A DNA stretch of 7,140 nucleotides, from IMG/VR virus record IMGVR_UViG_2778261667_000001, one strand, 5' to 3'. Each line of letters begins with the position of its first letter. Within the stretch, counting starts at the first letter, position 1. The DNA is from a virus. Its lineage: Duplodnaviria > Heunggongvirae > Uroviricota > Caudoviricetes. The translations under genes and the position numbers were made by a program. This document shows positions 134 to 6,775 of the stretch, in pieces. The notes below the pieces were generated by a model that saw only the letters and a program-made list of their open reading frames with translations, made no database searches and was not told the origin of the DNA.

Positions 134-167
134 CTAACTTTAGATAATTGGCATTATTTAAAGTTAG
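134..167. other. lox-like recombination site: 13-bp inverted arms flanking an 8-bp asymmetric spacer
   Basis: Seen in sequence: CTAACTTTAGATA (134-146), spacer ATTGGCAT (147-154), TATTTAAAGTTAG (155-167). The arms are inverted repeats matching at 12 of 13 positions. The 13+8+13 architecture is that of P1 loxP, and the arm matches the loxP arm ATAACTTCGTATA at 9 of 13 positions. It lies 152 bp upstream of the Cre-like gene, as loxP lies just upstream of cre in P1. Confidence 0.55.
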
Positions 168-175
168 GTTATAAT
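148..175 (+). promoter_or_regulatory. Candidate sigma70 promoter (-35 TTGGCA, 16-bp spacer, -10 TATAAT) overlapping the lox-like site
   Basis: Seen in sequence: TTGGCA at 148-153 (5/6 to TTGACA) and TATAAT at 170-175 (6/6), spaced 16 bp, oriented toward the recombinase gene at 319. The -35 sits inside the lox-like spacer and left edge of the right arm. Confidence 0.45.
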
Positions 176-318
176 CATGTGTAGATGAACAGTGTTGACA
201 TCACTAAAAATACGTGCATCGAATCAAAGGCTTGAATTTTGAAAATTAACTTATAGCTACCCTGTCATTTTTATATTTTTCGCGTAACGTCATCTGTATA
301 TAGAGGTTAAATAGTTTC

Positions 319-1347
319 ATGAGTGAATTAATTATCTCTGGCAGTTCCGGTGGTTTCCTGCGCAACATTGGCAAAGAGTACCAGGAGGCCGCAGAAAACT
401 TTATGCGGTTCATGAATGACCAGGGGGCTTATGCGCCGAATACTCTGCGCGACCTCCGGTTGGTGTTTCACTCCTGGGCGCGATGGTGTCACGCTCGCCA
501 GCTCGCCTGGTTCCCGATCTCACCAGAGATGGCCCGCGAGTATTTTCTTCAACTGCATGATGCCGATCTGGCTTCGACCACCATTGATAAGCACTACGCC
601 ATGCTGAATATGCTGCTTTCGCATTGTGGCCTTCCACCACTTTCGGATGATAAAAGTGTTTCTCTGGCTATGCGGCGCATCCGGCGAGAAGCAGCAACTG
701 AAAAAGGTGAACGAACAGGCCAGGCTATACCGCTGCGGTGGGACGACCTGAAACTGCTCGACGTCCTGTTGTCCAGGTCTGAACGGCTGGTAGATCTGCG
801 CAACCGGGCTTTTCTCTTTGTTGCATACAACACACTGATGCGTATGTCTGAAATCTCGCGAATTCGCGTAGGAGATCTGGATCAAACAGGTGACACTGTC
901 ACGCTACATATTTCACACACGAAGACAATAACGACCGCTGCCGGGCTTGATAAGGTGCTTTCTCGTCGCACTACCGCTGTACTGAATGACTGGCTGGAGG
1001 CTTCCGGGCTTCGTGAACATCCTGACGCGGTGCTGTTCCCGCCGATACACCGTAGCAATAAGGCCAGGATCACGATAACGCCCCTTACTGCACCTGCAAT
1101 GGAGAAAATATTCAGCGATGCCTGGGTGTTGCTGAATAAAAGAGATGCCACGCCGAACAAAGGAAGATACCGGACGTGGACAGGCCATAGTGCTCGTGTC
1201 GGGGCCGCTATCGATATGGCTGAAAAGCAGGTGTCTATGGTGGAGATCATGCAGGAAGGAACCTGGAAGAAACCGGAAACACTTATGCGGTATCTGCGCC
1301 GTGGCGGCGTGTCTGTGGGGGCTAATAGCCGCCTGATGGATTCGTAA
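319..1347 (+). CDS. Cre-family tyrosine site-specific recombinase
   Basis: The 342-aa ORF is nearly the same length as P1 Cre (343 aa) and aligns by eye along its whole length. Shared blocks include SWARWC, WFP..PE, LNML, VSLAMRRIRRE, RNRAFLFVAYNTLMRMSEISRIRVGDL, HTKT, WTGHSARVGAAIDMA, EIMQEGTW and LMRYLRR. Counterparts of Cre catalytic residues R173, K201, H289, R292, W315 and Y324 are all present. GAGG at 303-306 is a possible RBS. Confidence 0.9.
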   Translation: MSELIISGSSGGFLRNIGKEYQEAAENFMRFMNDQGAYAPNTLRDLRLVFHSWARWCHARQLAWFPISPEMAREYFLQLHDADLASTTIDKHYAMLNMLLSHCGLPPLSDDKSVSLAMRRIRREAATEKGERTGQAIPLRWDDLKLLDVLLSRSERLVDLRNRAFLFVAYNTLMRMSEISRIRVGDLDQTGDTVTLHISHTKTITTAAGLDKVLSRRTTAVLNDWLEASGLREHPDAVLFPPIHRSNKARITITPLTAPAMEKIFSDAWVLLNKRDATPNKGRYRTWTGHSARVGAAIDMAEKQVSMVEIMQEGTWKKPETLMRYLRRGGVSVGANSRLMDS

Positions 1348-1408
1348 ATTAAATTTCTAACATATCTTTTTAGATTGATATCTTTGCTGTAAAGTACCCT
1401 CGCCTATT

Positions 1409-1765
1409 TTGGAGGGTGCTTTGCAGAGTCAAATCACGGAATCAAGACGCTTCACGGTGGACGGTTACACCGTAACCTTCGCCGCTGGTGTTAAGAACAG
1501 TCATGCTGTCGTTGTATTCGGCATCATGACCGGGCTTGAGGCCGTCCCTGTATTTACCCTCGAAAAAAACTGGCGAAATCTGGAGGAAGCGGAAAGCTAT
1601 GTCCGGAAAGTAACCATCATTGCCGCCGAAAAACTCCTGGCCCACTATCAGGAAAATTATCGCACTATGGTCGAGAAAATTAATCTCGCTTTCACTCGCC
1701 CCACTACAGGCTTCATCGCCCCGGAGACTAATACAGGTCGCTATCCTGCAAGGGGTCGTCGGTGA
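1409..1765 (+). CDS. Hypothetical protein (about 114-118 aa, start codon uncertain)
   Basis: Intact ORF whose stop overlaps the next gene's GTG start (GTGA at 1762-1765). GGAGG at 1411-1415 sits 5 nt before an in-frame TTG at 1421, so the real start may be TTG 1421 or GTG 1457 rather than TTG 1409. No recognisable family. Confidence 0.5.
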   Translation: MEGALQSQITESRRFTVDGYTVTFAAGVKNSHAVVVFGIMTGLEAVPVFTLEKNWRNLEEAESYVRKVTIIAAEKLLAHYQENYRTMVEKINLAFTRPTTGFIAPETNTGRYPARGRR

Positions 1766-2238
1766 AAAATTATTACCCATCTCTGAATTGTTACCCGTCT
1801 TCGTATCCGGAATTGTCCGGGAAGCTGTTATCTCTTTTGGCTAAATCACCAACTGAATGGTTTAAGCCAGTCGTTATCAATCCACACTTCCTGGATTACG
1901 GATCTGTTCGCACTCGTAACGAACTCAAAAACCTGCTGGCGCATGGATTCATTCGACACCGTGCCGGGAAAGGCTATCAGTTAGCGATTTCGCCAGAAGA
2001 GGCCGTGCGGCTATTCGCATATCGTGACAGCCAGACAAAAGCACGGGTAATAGCTCAAATACTTCATAACGGCAGCACCTATGCCCGCCAGTTTGGCGGC
2101 GACACGTCGCAGTTCTTGCGGGCTGTGCGATCGCTGGAAGAACAAGGAGTTATTGAAAGTTCCTGTCTTCCTGTTCCTACCGTTCCACATATCAAACGTC
2201 GGGTTTACACCTTCACGCAGAGAGCTAAAAAACAATGA
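1762..2238 (+). CDS. Hypothetical protein, possible winged-helix DNA-binding protein
   Basis: 158-aa ORF with a GTG start overlapping the upstream stop and a stop overlapping the downstream ATG (ATGA at 2235-2238). Segments such as ELKNLLAHGFIRHRAGKGYQLAISPEEAVRLF and QFLRAVRSLEEQGVIES look like winged-helix recognition regions; this is inference from composition only. Confidence 0.55.
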   Translation: MKNYYPSLNCYPSSYPELSGKLLSLLAKSPTEWFKPVVINPHFLDYGSVRTRNELKNLLAHGFIRHRAGKGYQLAISPEEAVRLFAYRDSQTKARVIAQILHNGSTYARQFGGDTSQFLRAVRSLEEQGVIESSCLPVPTVPHIKRRVYTFTQRAKKQ

Positions 2239-2729
2239 TTTACGTAAAAGTGAAACGCCTACATCCGGAAGCAAAACTTCCAGCTTATGCCACTGCCGGA
2301 TCGGCGGCGATGGATTTTGAGGCTGTTGAAATAACACCGTGCGTCGATAGCAATGGTGCAATTTCCTCAAGCTGGTGGGTGCATACCGGGCTGGCTATGG
2401 AGATCCCGCCCGGCTGGTGTCTGAAACTCTATCCGCGTTCCGGATTGGGCTGCAAAAAACATACTCGCTTGGCTAACTGCGTAGGAATTATCGACTCCGA
2501 TTATCGCGGTGAAATCATGGCAAAACTGATTACTGATCCAGGCGGTGAAGGCGTTTGCCTCAAGCCGGGGATGGCGGTCATGCAAGGCATTTTTGAGCGT
2601 GTTGAACCGGTATCGCTGGTAGAAGTTGATGAACTCGATGAAACAGAACGAGGTGCTGGTGGCTTTGGTAGCACATCGGAAGGCCGCGTTGAAATCAAGC
2701 GTACACCGCTTCAGTACGCAAAGTTTTAA
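2235..2729 (+). CDS. dut: dUTP diphosphatase (trimeric dUTPase family)
   Basis: Matches conserved dUTPase motifs when compared by eye with E. coli Dut: PAYATAGSAAMDF (motif I), PRSGLG (motif II), GIIDSDYRGE (motif III) and RGAGGFGSTS (motif V). Motif V is followed by a short extra tail (EGRVEIKRTPLQYAKF). Start overlaps the upstream stop. Confidence 0.88.
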   Translation: MIYVKVKRLHPEAKLPAYATAGSAAMDFEAVEITPCVDSNGAISSSWWVHTGLAMEIPPGWCLKLYPRSGLGCKKHTRLANCVGIIDSDYRGEIMAKLITDPGGEGVCLKPGMAVMQGIFERVEPVSLVEVDELDETERGAGGFGSTSEGRVEIKRTPLQYAKF

Positions 2730-2743
2730 GTAGAGGAAGGATT

Positions 2744-3406
2744 ATGGCCAGCACTTTTCAGGTGTTCCCCAAATACAAATGCCACAGCATCATTCGGGCA
2801 TCGAAAATCAAAGATATTGTTATTGTCGGCAAAGCTTATGCGCCCATTTTTGGCAGCATCGAAGTCGTGGAGCCAAAAGGAATGACGCTTCGTGTTGATG
2901 GTGTGTTCTTGGAAAAGTTCCGACCGCAAATAGGAGGATATCTCGTCACTGCTGAAAATGGTTATCTGGTCTATGTGCCAGAGAAAGCATTTGAAAAATG
3001 CTATAGCCGGGTTAACGACGCCTCCGAAAATGGGGTATCGCTCAGCATTGAAGGTCACAATGGGGTGACATTCATTACAGCCAGGGACGTAACTATTTCT
3101 GCTGGCGGTATCGCTACTCTACAAGAAGAAATCGACCTTGAAGCAGCCGACTTTTCTGACGCGCTGATGTGGATGAAGGATGGCAAGAAAGTTGCTCGAC
3201 GCGGGTGGAACGGCGAAGACCAATTCTGCTGGCTGGTTCCTGAAGGACAGTACCCGGCACGAATGGAAGCCATTAAGGGATATTTCCCCGGCGACCTCGT
3301 TCCGTATGGTGCTTATTTCGCCTTAAAAAATGCACAAGGTGTAGTTGTTCCGTGGGTGCCTTCAGTTGGCGACCTGCTGGCCTGTGACTGGTTTGTTGTG
3401 GAGTGA
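2744..3406 (+). CDS. Two-domain hypothetical protein: unknown N-terminal domain fused to a C-terminal DUF2829-like (Tad2-type) domain
   Basis: 220-aa ORF with a good RBS (GGAAGGA at 2732-2738, ATG at 2744). The C-terminal ~80 aa (about 3161..3403) read ALMWMKDGKKVARRGWNG...PYGAYFALKNAQGVVVPWVPSVGDLLACDWFVVE. This matches the pattern I recall for small phage DUF2829 proteins (GKKV.R.GW near the start, D.LA.DW at the end). The N-terminal ~140 aa is unrecognised. Confidence 0.75.
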   Translation: MASTFQVFPKYKCHSIIRASKIKDIVIVGKAYAPIFGSIEVVEPKGMTLRVDGVFLEKFRPQIGGYLVTAENGYLVYVPEKAFEKCYSRVNDASENGVSLSIEGHNGVTFITARDVTISAGGIATLQEEIDLEAADFSDALMWMKDGKKVARRGWNGEDQFCWLVPEGQYPARMEAIKGYFPGDLVPYGAYFALKNAQGVVVPWVPSVGDLLACDWFVVE

Positions 3407-3412
3407 TTTAAC

Positions 3413-4219
3413 GTGGAAAATACCAAGAACATTCAATATCGCCTGCGTAACGGCCTGCTGGTGGATGTTAACGCTGACATGTCTCTGCCGCTCGACACGA
3501 TTGAACGCACTATCATGGCGTATCTTGGCTTTAATGAAGAGCTGAATGAAGAGCATGGCGTAGCCATATGGAGCGATGCAGACAACGGCGCTCGCCGTTA
3601 TATCACTGCCAGAGGCAAAGACTACTCTCTGGAAGAACTGTTTACCCTTGCGCAGTCTTTCGAATGTGTAGCATTGGATCTGTTTAATGATCCTGCTATA
3701 GCGCAACGACTTATCCGCGAGCTTGGGCTGTCCGTTACCCCAATCATCTTTAGAAATGGCAGCTTGACTGGCACATGGCGCGTAGAACGCATCTCAAACT
3801 ACCTTCCATATAACCGACAGTTAAATGGAGTAATCTCCGGCGTTAATCAGCCCGTAGCGTGTGAAAATGTAAACCTAGTTGTCGCTGTTTTGGCAACCGC
3901 ATGTCGCGTTATTGGTTTGACTAAACAGGCATTTATTCATTTCCCAAATGGTGCAGATGGTAGCGCAGAGATTATCGCGTGTGATTTCGAATTTACCTGG
4001 ATGCTACGAGAATATCTGGACAAAACAGTATTCCGTGCCGAAGAACTGGATATGTATATCACGTCAACGATTCCTGATGATGTGCGAGCTGAAGCAATCG
4101 CTACAGCCAGGGCTAAATGCCGTGCGGCGATTGCAGAACAGGCCAAAGAAGAACAGTCCGATGAAGTCGCGGCAGATGTGGAAGCAGAGGTAGCGGAGGA
4201 TGCTGATGCTGACGCCTAA
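3413..4219 (+). CDS. Hypothetical protein with a strongly acidic C-terminal tail
   Basis: 268-aa ORF. The first start codon in frame is GTG at 3413, two codons after the upstream TGA and in the same frame, with no obvious SD, so the start is uncertain. The last ~30 aa (EQAKEEQSDEVAADVEAEVAEDADADA) are very acidic. The 3' end overlaps the next gene by 20 nt. Confidence 0.65.
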   Translation: MENTKNIQYRLRNGLLVDVNADMSLPLDTIERTIMAYLGFNEELNEEHGVAIWSDADNGARRYITARGKDYSLEELFTLAQSFECVALDLFNDPAIAQRLIRELGLSVTPIIFRNGSLTGTWRVERISNYLPYNRQLNGVISGVNQPVACENVNLVVAVLATACRVIGLTKQAFIHFPNGADGSAEIIACDFEFTWMLREYLDKTVFRAEELDMYITSTIPDDVRAEAIATARAKCRAAIAEQAKEEQSDEVAADVEAEVAEDADADA

Positions 4220-5306
4220 AAACATCACCGAATTACCAGAGTGGAGAGAGCTGGTAAGCAAATATAGCCATGACTGGGCATTAGCAGCAGAAGAGTTGAT
4301 GGGTGTTAAGTTAACCCACCAGCAAAAGCTAATTGTTGAGGCGATTCAACAAAAAGGTTCAGCAGTCAGCGTCACCACTCCTGAAGGGATAGGCCAAAAG
4401 ACGGTTATGGCTATAATTAGTATTCTTTATACAATCCTGATGCCTGAGTCTAAAACGGTCATTGTTTCCCCAAAGTTCTATAATTGTCGCAGGCAAGTTA
4501 TCCAATACATAAGTACGTATTGGGATAGAGTCAGTAACAGAATCCCATTGCTGGGAGAATATTTTAAAGTCGACGGAAACGGCATCACTCATCGTTACCG
4601 GGAATATTGGGGCTGCGAAATTAAGCCATATCACCGAAATTATGAGGAAGGTTTCGGTGGATATTATGCTGAACATCTTTTAATCATTGTTACGGAGGCG
4701 GCTCTTGCTGGCGATCGGCTATTCAGCATGTTAAGAGCATCGTTAGTAAGTGACGATTCACGTATACTTTTAATGTCCGCTCCTTCAGAGGAGGAGCATG
4801 GACACTTTTACGATTCCCATCATGGTCGTGCAAAATCTGAAGAAAATCCATGTGGTATTTATACAGCCATCAAGTTGAACGCAGAAGATACCCCCATTAT
4901 TTCTCAAGGTTATCTTGATAACATTGCAGAAATATATGGTGGTAAAAATAGCGATTACTACCGTCGTATGGTTCTTGGTGAGTTCCCTGGTATTCGGGAG
5001 GCTGTTCTTGAATCAGATATGCCGAAAACAATGCGCTTTACGATGCATGATGGTAGTGAATGGACAATGCCATTACTAGTGATAGCCCGGCATCATGCAC
5101 AGCACCACGCCAAAAAACATGGCGTTACAACATTAGAGTGGTTGAAATCGCACACCATTCCACTCTTCACTGCAGATCACAATGCTATCGTTGAGTGGGC
5201 AAAAACAATTCCGTGGGAGAATGTCGCTGAATACGCCAACATGCTAAAACCGCCGAAAGACAGGCAAGAAATTAGCTGGCTGACAGCAGAAAAAATCATC
5301 GAGTGA
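4200..5306 (+). CDS. Terminase-large-subunit-like ASCE ATPase domain protein (no nuclease domain, divergent Walker motifs)
   Basis: 368-aa ORF; ATG 4206 is the more likely start because GGAGG at 4195-4199 sits 6 nt upstream of it. Motif order and spacing fit a terminase ATPase domain: Walker A-like PEGIGQKT (aa 61-68), Walker B-like LLIIVTE (aa 160-166), coupling motif-like LLMSAPS (aa 190-196), and YYRRMVLGEFPG near aa 253-264. The Gly before the Walker A Lys is Q and the Walker B Asp is T. The remaining ~100 aa are too short for an RNaseH-like nuclease domain and show no acidic triad. Confidence 0.7.
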   Translation: MLMLTPKNITELPEWRELVSKYSHDWALAAEELMGVKLTHQQKLIVEAIQQKGSAVSVTTPEGIGQKTVMAIISILYTILMPESKTVIVSPKFYNCRRQVIQYISTYWDRVSNRIPLLGEYFKVDGNGITHRYREYWGCEIKPYHRNYEEGFGGYYAEHLLIIVTEAALAGDRLFSMLRASLVSDDSRILLMSAPSEEEHGHFYDSHHGRAKSEENPCGIYTAIKLNAEDTPIISQGYLDNIAEIYGGKNSDYYRRMVLGEFPGIREAVLESDMPKTMRFTMHDGSEWTMPLLVIARHHAQHHAKKHGVTTLEWLKSHTIPLFTADHNAIVEWAKTIPWENVAEYANMLKPPKDRQEISWLTAEKIIE

Positions 5307-5310
5307 TAGT

Positions 5311-5342
5311 AAAAAGCCCGCCTGGTTGAGCGGGCTTTTTTA
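5311..5342. terminator. Bidirectional Rho-independent terminator
   Basis: Seen in sequence: AAAAA-GCCCGC-ctggttga-GCGGGC-TTTTTT. A 6-bp GC stem with an 8-nt loop is flanked by an A-tract and a T-tract, 5 nt after the stop of the 4200..5306 gene, between convergent blocks. Confidence 0.75.
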
Positions 5343-5498
5343 TGCGCCTTAAATCACAGGTCTATCATCAAACATCAACTGGAATGAGTGAGGAATCGAC
5401 CACAAGCAACGCCCCTTGCAATATGCCTTCGCGGTTTTCGAGTAAACAACTTAGCGCGGAATCAGTATTCGCCACAAGATGTAAAAAGTCCACCAGTG

Positions 5499-5765
5499 TT
5501 ATGGTTCGCATTTCCATATGGTGTTCTGAACGCCAGTACCGGGCGCGAGATGGGGGTTAGCGTTCGCGCTATGCTGATATACGGCTTTAGACTTTCCATA
5601 TTGCTGACAGGCTTTATCTGCGGTTTTTTGCAGGCTATCCAGCCCATACCAGCCATCTGACTGGATGCTTACCTTTTCACCGTCATTGTATTGCACCATC
5701 GCACACCCAGATATAGCCAGTATCGCGCCGACAATAACGCTATTCCATAAAACTCTATGCAACAT
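5499..5765 (-). CDS. Small putative lipoprotein (about 88 aa)
   Basis: Taking ATG at 5765 as start, the N-terminus MLHRVLWNSVIVGAILAISGCA has a basic n-region, a hydrophobic core and a lipobox-like ISGC. The mature part would be ~65 aa with two more Cys. The ORF track start at 5771 is a TTG two codons upstream. Confidence 0.5.
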   Translation of the reverse strand: MLHRVLWNSVIVGAILAISGCAMVQYNDGEKVSIQSDGWYGLDSLQKTADKACQQYGKSKAVYQHSANANPHLAPGTGVQNTIWKCEP

Positions 5766-5769
5766 ATAC

Positions 5770-5800
5770 AAAAATCCCCTCTGTGAATTGAGGGGATTTT
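5770..5800 (-). terminator. Hairpin with T-tract, candidate intrinsic terminator or attenuator for minus-strand transcription
   Basis: Seen in sequence, plus strand: AAAATCCCCTC-tgtgaatt-GAGGGGATTTT (11-bp perfect stem with a 7-bp GC-rich core). On the minus strand the stem is followed by TTTTTGTAT and then the ATG at 5765, so the 3' half (GAGGGGA) could also serve as that gene's SD. Confidence 0.5.
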
Positions 5801-5834
5801 AGCATGGTGATCAGATATCAGCTTTATCCGGAAT

Positions 5835-6587
5835 TTAATCAGCCTCCAGTGGCAATAACGCCTTAGCCATTTCATGAATCAGCATGGCATCAATGACGCC
5901 TAGCGTATGGCCCGGCTTAATCTTTAATGCGGCCTCAAGATAGCCTCTTTCCAGAGTGGTTTTTACGCTTTTCCTGGGCGCTTGTTGGGAACTATCCGGA
6001 AGATCCGGATGGTTGCCAGCCTCATAAGCTACCCGCAACCAGTGCATGAATGTTTCCGCAGACACACAACCGCAGTCCACATCAATTTCCCCGCGTTGCT
6101 GTTCCAGCCATTGCTCAAAATCTAACTTGTAAGCCTTACTTTCAAGTTCATCACCATTGGACTTGACTTTCTGAGACGCTATGCGAGCTGCTTCATACTG
6201 TTCACGAGTGACAACCGATGTAAACGCACTGCGATCAAGGTCACTGATATCGCAAATAATGCCATCCAAGGAATAATTCTTTGATGATTGGTAATTTTTA
6301 TGGCGCGTACCAAAAAGAACCATAGCGCGACTACTACCTGGCATCGTAATGGATAGATGGCAAAAATCTTTTCCATCAGGCCATCCACGCCCCTTAGATA
6401 ATTCCTTCACTAACAAGTCAATCAGTGTCATAGCGTTACCATCCTTGCAAGGCGCTAAAGCTATTTTGGCAAGCTCCAATACGTCATCTGCTGTGTATCC
6501 AGCACCGTGACCATACATTTCGATACGGGAAATAATATCTGAAATACGCTCTTTAGTGATTCTTGTCATAGTTTTATTTCCTTGCAT
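5835..6587 (-). CDS. Hypothetical protein (244-250 aa)
   Basis: Long intact minus-strand ORF. Both ATG 6587 (AAGG 5-6 nt upstream) and ATG 6569 (AAGGAAA upstream, overlapping the upstream stop as ATGA) are plausible starts. No recognisable family. Confidence 0.7.
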   Translation of the reverse strand: MQGNKTMTRITKERISDIISRIEMYGHGAGYTADDVLELAKIALAPCKDGNAMTLIDLLVKELSKGRGWPDGKDFCHLSITMPGSSRAMVLFGTRHKNYQSSKNYSLDGIICDISDLDRSAFTSVVTREQYEAARIASQKVKSNGDELESKAYKLDFEQWLEQQRGEIDVDCGCVSAETFMHWLRVAYEAGNHPDLPDSSQQAPRKSVKTTLERGYLEAALKIKPGHTLGVIDAMLIHEMAKALLPLEAD

Positions 6588-6775
6588 GGTTCGCCTTTAC
6601 GGCAAACAGCTACACGGTCATTTCTTACATTAACCACAGTCACCGTTCCGTCATCGCATTGAATAACGATGAAAGGGTGTTCATTCTCTTTTGTGCAATG
6701 TTGCTGTTCCCCTGCTGTAACAGTGAGGGGGATTAATAAAATCATAATTACTGCGAATTTACTAAATGTTGCCAT
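6566..6775 (-). CDS. Small secreted or periplasmic protein with signal peptide and four Cys
   Basis: 69-aa ORF. The N-terminus MATFSKFAVIMILLIPLTVTAG looks like a Sec signal peptide. The ~47-aa mature part has four Cys (HCTKE, IQCDD, AVCRK, EPCKE). Its stop is coupled to the next gene's possible start. Confidence 0.5.
   Translation of the reverse strand: MATFSKFAVIMILLIPLTVTAGEQQHCTKENEHPFIVIQCDDGTVTVVNVRNDRVAVCRKGEPCKEIKL

Follow-up and report, generated by a model that had tools for sequence, protein, structure and literature searches.

Overlap between terminators and promoters, masking of a Shine-Dalgarno (SD) sequence in dependence on where a transcript originates, and the phage genes called morons are already known. 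In IS10/Tn10, fold-back inhibition was reportedly described by Davis, Simons and Kleckner in 1985 (Cell 43:379). The morons of Juhala et al. (2000) and of Hendrix and colleagues are said to be single genes that lie between phage genes, possess their own promoter and terminator, and are expressed in the prophage. Here we describe a hairpin that precedes a small lipoprotein gene on the minus strand of a 7,140-nucleotide (nt) stretch of Caudoviricetes DNA, IMG/VR virus record IMGVR_UViG_2778261667_000001; the whole stretch is referred to as the window. The hairpin carries the candidate SD sequence of the gene in its 3' arm and a predicted -10 element at the foot of its 5' arm. A conserved, widespread cassette in which a -10 box, an arm serving as discriminator and anti-SD sequence, and an SD sequence share one palindrome appears to be undescribed. 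We did not find it in the literature on phage HK639, on prophage theta expression, or on the overlap of terminator, promoter and SD sequences.

We propose, with about an even chance of being right, that the 35-40 bp before the lipoprotein gene are a cassette in which a terminator, a promoter and a ribosome-binding site are fused. RNA reading in from the upstream genes of the same strand would hold both arms, fold into the hairpin with its U-run and mostly terminate. In any RNA that did read through, the SD sequence (GAGGGG) would stay base-paired and be poorly translated. The foot of the 5' arm would double as an extended -10 element, TGcTAAAAT, and the C-rich arm, CCCCTC, would form the discriminator that separates this element from the start site; RNA polymerase would initiate at the first nucleotide of the loop, A5789. 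A transcript from this promoter would lack the anti-SD arm, present a free SD sequence on a 24-nt leader, and run for ~480 nt to a bidirectional terminator at ~5312-5338 that would complete the promoter-gene-terminator unit. The lipoprotein gene would then be a self-contained, insulated moron, expressed from the plasmid prophage.

The predicted model shares with IS10 fold-back a ribosome-binding site in the 3' arm and a 5' arm that lies upstream of the element's own transcription start. The logic is also the same: transcripts from outside hold both arms and are not translated, and those from the element's own promoter start inside and are translated. The window differs from IS10 in its cargo, which is a prophage lipoprotein (elsewhere theta) and not a transposase, in the U-run that makes the hairpin resemble an intrinsic terminator, and in a -10 box that is the foot of the stem. 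The likeness to morons consists of a small accessory gene with a predicted sigma-70 promoter upstream and a terminator downstream, found in unrelated neighbourhoods: beside hot/humD in P1-like plasmids, in lambdoid nin regions, in an island next to icd, and behind another gene at one plasmid locus (L115). Unlike in morons, the promoter would here be fused to a terminator and a ribosome-binding site in one 35-bp palindrome, and most relatives have hot (theta) after the lipoprotein gene and no immediate terminator.

The locus also resembles the tR2-type terminators of lambdoid nin regions. A hairpin in HK639 corresponds to them both in position, following the replication/ren-side genes and preceding the nin genes, and in sequence type, CCCCTC-loop-GAGGGG followed by a T-run. 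The depositors of HK639 (NC_016158) annotated this homologous hairpin as a terminator; their annotation omits the conserved TATAAT, the SD role of the 3' arm, and the open reading frame (ORF) of 60 amino acids (aa) that follows. As for the product, it is like T5 Llp, Cor of phi80, N15 and T1, and lambda Bor in being a small lipoprotein of temperate phages (65-70 aa when mature) with conserved cysteines in its mature part. It differs from them in having no match in Pfam, NCBIfam or PADLOC and no fold match in the PDB at E <= 0.001; the structure matches listed included no exclusion lipoprotein such as T5 Llp.

The minus strand reads ...ATGC-TAAAAT-CCCCTC-AATTCACA-GAGGGG-ATTTT-TGTAT-ATG and has the features of an intrinsic terminator: an 11-bp stem in which a core of 7 bp is G/C-rich, an 8-nt loop and then TTTTTGTAT, all after a gene of the same strand. 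A loop of 8 nt is at the upper end of the size range usual for intrinsic terminators. A terminator scan of the window listed the hairpin with 11 pairs and an 8-nt loop. The number of hairpins in that scan was not above chance (2 found, 1.7 expected), and the significance of this one is based on its folding energy and conservation, not on the scan count. The predicted RNA fold had an energy of -16.6 kcal/mol (z = -4.8), equalled by 0 of 200 shuffles; in a 111-nt context, z was -3.7. According to a repeat search, the hairpin is the only inverted repeat within 5400..6000, and its arms extend to 16 nt, forming a palindrome that is 88% complementary and touches the ATG. The sequence 5' of the hairpin either belongs to the end of a coding region or differs freely among relatives.

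Sequence, terminator scan and folding agree with an earlier note on this DNA, which had reported a terminator-like hairpin upstream of the lipoprotein gene with the SD sequence in its 3' arm. The anatomy required correction in two respects. The arm order had been given as GAGGGGA-loop-TCCCCTC, and both strands read TCCCCTC-loop-GAGGGGA. The hairpin and its tail had been placed 4 nt before the ATG; TTTTTGTAT reaches the ATG, and the gap is 5 nt (TGTAT) past the 11-bp stem and 0 nt past the extended stem. A LexA box at the hairpin, considered because SOS genes are neighbours, was rejected, since CTGT-N8-ACAG is absent there. A P1 C1 operator and a late-promoter -22 box were also rejected, as the hairpin resembles neither.

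GAGGGG is the sole purine-rich stretch between the loop and the ATG and, as had been claimed, the only SD candidate. Its spacing to the ATG is 10 nt in the window; the modal spacing in related cassettes, where a G-rich arm also precedes the ATG, is 6 nt (61 of 120). Lambdoid relatives read GAGGGG-ATTTTT-ATG. Relative to the lambdoid form GAGGGGATTTTT-ATG, the lineage of the window, group A, has four extra bases, GTAT, and therefore a longer palindrome and an ATG shifted to 10 nt from GAGGGG. Some ambiguity about the start codon arises from an in-frame TTG at 5771, located 4 nt past GAGGGG, which would give a product of 90 aa. The ATG at 5765 is the more likely start.

According to an approximate position-weight-matrix scan, the best -10 sequence upstream of the start codon is TGcTAAAAT, which has the form of an extended -10 element. 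The promoter comparison covered >160 homologous loci and >100 related cassettes. It included an unbiased scan with the pattern CCCCTC-N(4-12)-GAGGGGATTTTTATG, in which the -10 box is unspecified and which yielded 50 unique contexts. The six bases ahead of CCCCTC were exactly TATAAT in 39 of the 50 and CATAAT or TACAAT in 2 more. Information content was 1.2-1.5 bits at the six positions of the box and <=0.7 bits further upstream, the TG excepted. An A-tract complementary to the U-run (AAAAAT) occurred in only 2 of the 50 contexts. The box is therefore conserved for itself, and pairing does not explain it. The lipoprotein loci of types A and B all have TATAAT or TAAAAT directly 5' of the C-rich arm, within divergent flanks. 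In 111 of 120 cassettes, the first purine beyond the box is at a distance of 7 or 8 nt, usually at a C/A junction between arm and loop; 7-8 nt is the canonical distance from a -10 box to a sigma-70 start. RNA starting at A5789 folds weakly (-5 kcal/mol, z = -0.6), and the masking hairpin is not formed.

The setting of some loci also argues for a promoter in the cassette. At L056, L010, L067 and L086, the remnant of a methyltransferase pseudogene is all that separates the cassette from a strong intrinsic terminator ~130 nt upstream, and at L015 the gene occupies a small island flanked by icd and an alcohol dehydrogenase gene. Because the gene is strongly constrained despite the upstream terminator or the island setting, a local promoter appears to be required at these five loci, where the -10 box is the only good candidate. 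Variants in which the hairpin is weak or missing (L005 type, L147, L069) keep both TATAAT and the SD sequence. In group B, comprising lambdoid prophages and the small icd-adjacent island, with members in Klebsiella, Citrobacter, Raoultella and others, the arrangement is TCGAAA/CTGACG/CTGTCA-N17-TATAAT, with a match of 4/6 for the -35 hexamer and 10/12 in the promoter scan. The island is likely to be a prophage remnant.

To compare the hairpin itself, we extracted the DNA preceding the lipobox codon at 165 homologous loci, corresponding to 85 unique sequences. In group A, found on P1-like plasmids such as pMTY12355_3, the hairpin is nearly unchanged; a C-to-T substitution in the 5' arm of L025 produces a G.U pair. 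In L115, the upstream DNA is unrelated and homology starts at ATGCTAAAAT; the arms, at 2970-3000, are as in the window, and the loop, TGTAAACT, approximates the reverse complement (TGTGAATT) of the window's loop. This looks like an inversion within a quasi-palindrome. The upstream neighbour in L115 is also different, encoding a putative lipoprotein of 142 aa.

The layout in group B is TATAAT, a C-rich run (CCCCCTC, CCCTCTC or CCCCGGC), a loop, the complementary G-rich run that is the SD sequence, 4-6 nt, and the ATG. In the CCCTCTC/GAGAGGG form (group B-i), stem stability rises to -21 kcal/mol, and the AU of the AUG is part of the stem. No T-run follows the SD sequence in group B (GGGGGAACAATG, GAGAGGGATTATATG), so that terminator character is not kept wherever the hairpin is. 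The group B hairpin is therefore not a terminator, though the SD sequence is still masked. From this comparison, termination would be specific to a lineage and SD masking general. A further set of loci, group C (L006, L007, L012, L013 and relatives), has a different hairpin, ATACCCTTGTAC-N6-GTACGGGTAT, ~50 nt ahead of the ATG. A -10-like box, TAAAAT or CATAAT, is again present at the 5' foot of this hairpin, and the SD sequence (AGGA) is outside the stem.

Substitutions in the arms preserve pairing. Two-sided changes distinguish CCCTCTC/GAGAGGG from CCCCCTC/GAGGGGG and TAAAAT/ATTTT from TATAAT/ATTAT, and the three one-sided changes (L025, L080, L073) all yield G.U pairs on the sense strand. 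Pairs were counted on a base-anchored alignment of the arms only, because a MAFFT alignment of the whole cassette was out of structural register. In the arms alignment, 72% of cells were paired, as compared to at most 57% in slid registers. Five pairs had changed on both sides, and the observed pairing or covariation score was reached by 0 of 500 shuffles. The loop is 4 to 11 nt long and free in sequence, which favours an RNA hairpin over a protein operator. These patterns indicate that pairing in the hairpin is selected at the RNA level.

The same cassette occurs in front of other genes. The sequence TATAAT-CCCCTC(C)-loop-(G)AGGGG-TTTT(TT)-ATG precedes a basic protein of 60 aa, after which comes a theta (hot) homologue, both in a lambdoid prophage of E. 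coli (L168) and in HK639 (L171). The 60-aa ORF (MSNEEMTPAEKYK...RKKRGRTAD; L171 1320-1502, L168 2614-2796) is located between the hairpin and theta and ends in a stop codon that overlaps the start of theta. This ORF has no annotation in HK639 and is called 'hypothetical' in an E. coli prophage. Scanning IMG/VR for the pattern yielded at least 120 further copies of the cassette, mostly before theta, the 60-aa protein or a 108-aa protein. We tentatively suggest, at somewhat less than even probability, that a ~35-bp palindromic cassette (-10 box, C-rich discriminator/anti-SD arm, free loop with the start site, G-rich SD arm and optional U-run) is carried widely by temperate enterobacterial phages as a portable device that ties translation to the origin of the transcript. 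Its cargo (theta/hot, the lipoprotein, the 60-aa basic protein and others) would be expressed in the quiescent prophage and shielded from transcription of the phage operons.

If the promoter is real, a single 35-bp element would end the upstream operon, start the next transcript and supply a ribosome-binding site usable on that transcript only. It would also provide a simple signature for cargo genes expressed in lysogeny in P1-like phage-plasmids and lambdoid prophages, and a very compact insulator part for synthetic biology. Annotation would be corrected in that the hairpin would be more than a terminator, the lipoprotein would start at its signal peptide, and a 60-aa gene would be placed before HK639 theta.

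Several observations weigh against the proposed cassette. The promoter and its start site are predictions. The window has no recognisable -35 element (AAGCTG), and with TAAAAT instead of TATAAT as its hexamer, promoter activity would depend on the TGn extension. A -35 element is not required for extended -10 promoters. No conserved -35 element was visible in the commonest lambdoid contexts. The TCGAAA of group B is within the 3' end of the methyltransferase reading frame, and its conservation may be partly coding. For this reason, we gave the group B -35 hexamer less weight and in part withdrew TCGAAA as a pure phylogenetic footprint. The benefit of a hairpin that acts only on read-in RNA is assumed, and in lambdoid phages an antiterminated polymerase would read through the hairpin. 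Finally, the upstream stop codon in lambdoid contexts is often 2-5 nt before TATAAT, which also fits translational coupling.

Among the alternatives, the one that survives best, and that we still regard as unlikely, is that the gene has no promoter of its own and is expressed through readthrough of the terminator, for example by the antiterminated polymerase of the lytic cycle, together with opening of the hairpin, which would be an attenuator-like or translation-repressing element. Same-strand genes do directly precede the lipoprotein gene, and the hairpin is both stable and, G.U changes included, maintained as an RNA structure. Further, the lambdoid cassette is located in the nin region, where polymerase is antiterminated, a terminator is all that the HK639 depositors annotated, and the lineage of the window has no -35 element. 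However, the near-invariant TATAAT is not accounted for by pairing, the box is retained in hairpin-less variants, and loci behind a terminator and a pseudogene remnant, or in a small island, are still under purifying selection. No alternative antiterminator fold or leader peptide was found near the hairpin. Similarly, Rfam returned no family over 5766..5830 at E <= 1, its sub-threshold, leader-like matches all falling on the terminator at 5310-5340. Nor is the stem weak and mismatched in the manner of an RNA thermometer: with 6-7 uninterrupted G-C/A-U pairs and energies of -16.6 kcal/mol in the window and to -21 kcal/mol in relatives, it is too stable for a thermosensor. The attenuator-like dependence on readthrough or hairpin opening suggested by the earlier note is thus probably wrong. 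The models are not exclusive, and lytic readthrough and the proposed promoter may act together.

Translational coupling is improbable. In this mechanism, ribosomes ending the upstream ORF would unwind the 5' arm and free the SD sequence, making the lipoprotein in proportion to upstream translation. It would suit the many lambdoid contexts with a stop codon just before TATAAT, as well as the inclusion of the AU of the AUG in the group B-i stem. However, the distance from the upstream stop codon to the stem is 34 nt in the window, 10 nt in L001 and L002, and 86 nt in L115; the upstream 'gene' of L056 is a pseudogene remnant behind a terminator; and the U-run of the window would end most transcripts first. 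A dimeric repressor that binds the palindrome as a DNA operator and controls the promoter has a similarly low probability: although a palindrome centred on -10/+1 is at the classic operator position and the arms are conserved beyond the needs of a terminator, the spacing of the half-sites varies from 4 to 11 nt around a free sequence, the one-sided changes that are G.U on the sense strand are A-C on the other, no regulator gene accompanies the cassette across P1-like plasmid, lambdoid nin region and icd island, and the SD role explains the conservation of the G-rich arm.

Table 1. Coordinates of the cassette, the lipoprotein gene and neighbouring features in the window.
Feature	Position	Strand	Basis or remark
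Hairpin AAAATCCCCTC / AATTCACA / GAGGGGATTTT	5771..5800	-	Terminator scan, RNA folding, inverted-repeat search
5' arm AAAATCCCCTC	5800..5790	-	
Loop AATTCACA	5789..5782	-	
3' arm GAGGGGATTTT	5781..5771	-	
Extended palindrome	5766..5805		Arms 5766-5781 / 5790-5805
Predicted extended -10 element TGcTAAAAT	5796..5804	-	TG 5804-5803, hexamer 5801-5796; overlaps foot of 5' arm
Predicted transcription start, A	5789	-	7th nt after -10 hexamer, first loop nt; sigma-70 geometry
SD candidate GAGGGG	5776..5781	-	Sequence reading; within 3' arm of hairpin
T-rich tail TTTTTGTAT, terminator U-tract	5766..5774	-	After G/C-rich part of stem; reaches ATG
T-run TTTTT	5774..5770	-	
TGTAT	5770..5766	-	After 11-bp stem
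ATG	5765..5763	-	
Lipoprotein gene, 88 aa from ATG 5765 (90 aa from TTG 5771)	5499..5765	-	ORF list, homologues, selection
Signal peptide (residues 1-20) and lipobox Cys21	5703..5765	-	Alignments A1, A3
Lipobox I-S-G-C	5714..5703	-	
49-aa chimeric ORF, deletion scar	5368..5517	-	Local blastn against L025 and L025 ORF list
Bidirectional terminator AAAAAAGCCCGC-tcaaccag-GCGGGCTTTTT	5312..5338	both	Closes lipoprotein unit and convergent + strand gene 4200..5306
250-aa gene of unknown function, upstream of lipoprotein gene	5835..6587	-	Stop TAA 5837..5835; ORF list

The lipoprotein gene encodes a protein identical to WP_236942274.1, a 'hypothetical protein' of Escherichia marmotae / Escherichia sp. 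We found 61 homologues in Enterobacteriaceae, on P1-like plasmids and on chromosomes, and a profile search of 1.8 billion representatives added ~25 distant members with 23-40% identity. A homologous query for this lipoprotein matched ~4% of complete E. coli genomes. The only match in PHROGs was phrog_7757 (E = 5.5e-53), of unknown function. The N-terminus, MLHRVLWNSVIVGAILAISGC, has a lipobox: in the signal peptide, MLHRVLWNSVIVGAILA-ISGC, Arg4 is followed by a 14-residue hydrophobic stretch and then by Cys21. I-S-G-C fits the lipobox pattern [LVI][ASTVI][GAS]-C and the PROSITE PS51257-type rule. The N-terminal regions of the homologues are unrelated in sequence, yet always combine a basic n-region with a hydrophobic stretch and end in [LIVM]-x-[GA]-C. 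The lipobox Cys is invariant across 41 aligned sequences, down to 23% identity, and the mature part of the family contains two more invariant Cys residues.

The mature region is under strong purifying selection. The ratio of nonsynonymous to synonymous divergence (dN/dS) was 0.03 in comparison with L001; in comparison with other genera, dN was 0.11-0.17 and dS was saturated. These alignments indicate that the ORF is a genuine, conserved gene of a lipoprotein family, in keeping with the earlier assignment, and we infer that its product is lipidated. Residue +2 of the lipobox is Ala, which under the Lol rule predicts sorting to the outer membrane; the lipoprotein is accordingly predicted to be directed there. 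An AlphaFold model with a predicted local distance difference test (pLDDT) score of 90.3 consists of a signal helix (residues 2-17) and a compact beta-beta-alpha-beta-beta domain. A Foldseek search of the PDB with this model gave no match at E <= 0.001, and a sequence-profile search of the PDB gave only chance-level matches, of which TraV was the best (E = 0.098). The only significant fold match was viral, an uncharacterised 'Lipoprotein' of an uncultured phage. The role in exclusion or receptor blocking that the earlier note had raised is neither supported nor excluded. The lipoprotein is common and strongly constrained, yet uncharacterised.

Public annotation frequently calls shortened forms of 66 aa or 71 aa, with a start within or beyond the signal peptide; at least 1000 contigs carry one 66-aa form. 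Such calls, often from an internal Met and lacking the signal peptide, obscure the fact that the family consists of lipoproteins. In the phage GenBank collection, nothing matched in a tblastn search with the protein or in a distant blastn search with the DNA. P1, P7-like phages and D6 are without the lipoprotein gene; in P1, upfM-upfO and the late promoter LPhot precede hot, and the sequence of LPhot bears no relation to the cassette. A sub-lineage of P1-like plasmids (L043-L050, L120, L167) encodes a mature lipoprotein identical to that of the window (dS 0.23). In the region ~60 nt upstream of the lipobox codon, these loci lack the hairpin cassette and have no in-frame ATG, GTG or TTG between a TAG stop codon and the lipobox; their start codon is possibly ATT.

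The window derives from a D6/P1-like phage-plasmid. Bases 151-4176, with the Dre recombinase, dUTPase and the rox site among them, match phage D6 at 94% identity. DNA similar to 5499-6650 is present in 384 plasmid records, mostly non-mobilizable Escherichia/Salmonella plasmids of ~90-100 kb. The upstream 250-aa gene has two alleles. In the window and L025, it ends at TAA (AAA to TAA); in L001 and L002, it is 8 codons longer and extends to a TGA that corresponds to 5813..5811, 10 nt ahead of the hairpin. The convergent gene on the + strand encodes 368 aa and belongs to phrog_5902, which is weakly terminase-large-like. Searches of Pfam, NCBIfam and PADLOC returned no family for the lipoprotein or its neighbours.

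In P1-like relatives, hot starts 2 nt after the lipoprotein gene and is followed by humD and phd/doc. Compared with its closest relative, L025, the window has lost ~0.9 kb and ~0.2 kb downstream of the lipoprotein gene (scars in 5342-5498), corresponding to a 148-aa ORF, hot (theta) and most of humD. Therefore, the lipoprotein gene is the sole intact gene of its unit in the window. The 49-aa ORF occupies the position at which relatives carry the 148-aa ORF, hot and humD; it consists of two leftover fragments that have been fused, and its residues 29-47 are weakly UmuD-like. In a lambdoid prophage without the cassette (L169, 2760-2790), the same methyltransferase remnant and then a terminator are followed by dinI with a clear LexA box, CTGTATAAAAACACAG, and SOS-related cargo (dinI, theta, humD) is recurrent at this genomic position. 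Lastly, an ORF of 69 aa at 6566-6775 on the minus strand of the window (phrog_20764, function unknown) has a signal-peptide-like N-terminus, MATFSKFAVIMILLIPLTVTAGEQQHC..., and several Cys residues, and may encode a second small exported protein of the same gene string.

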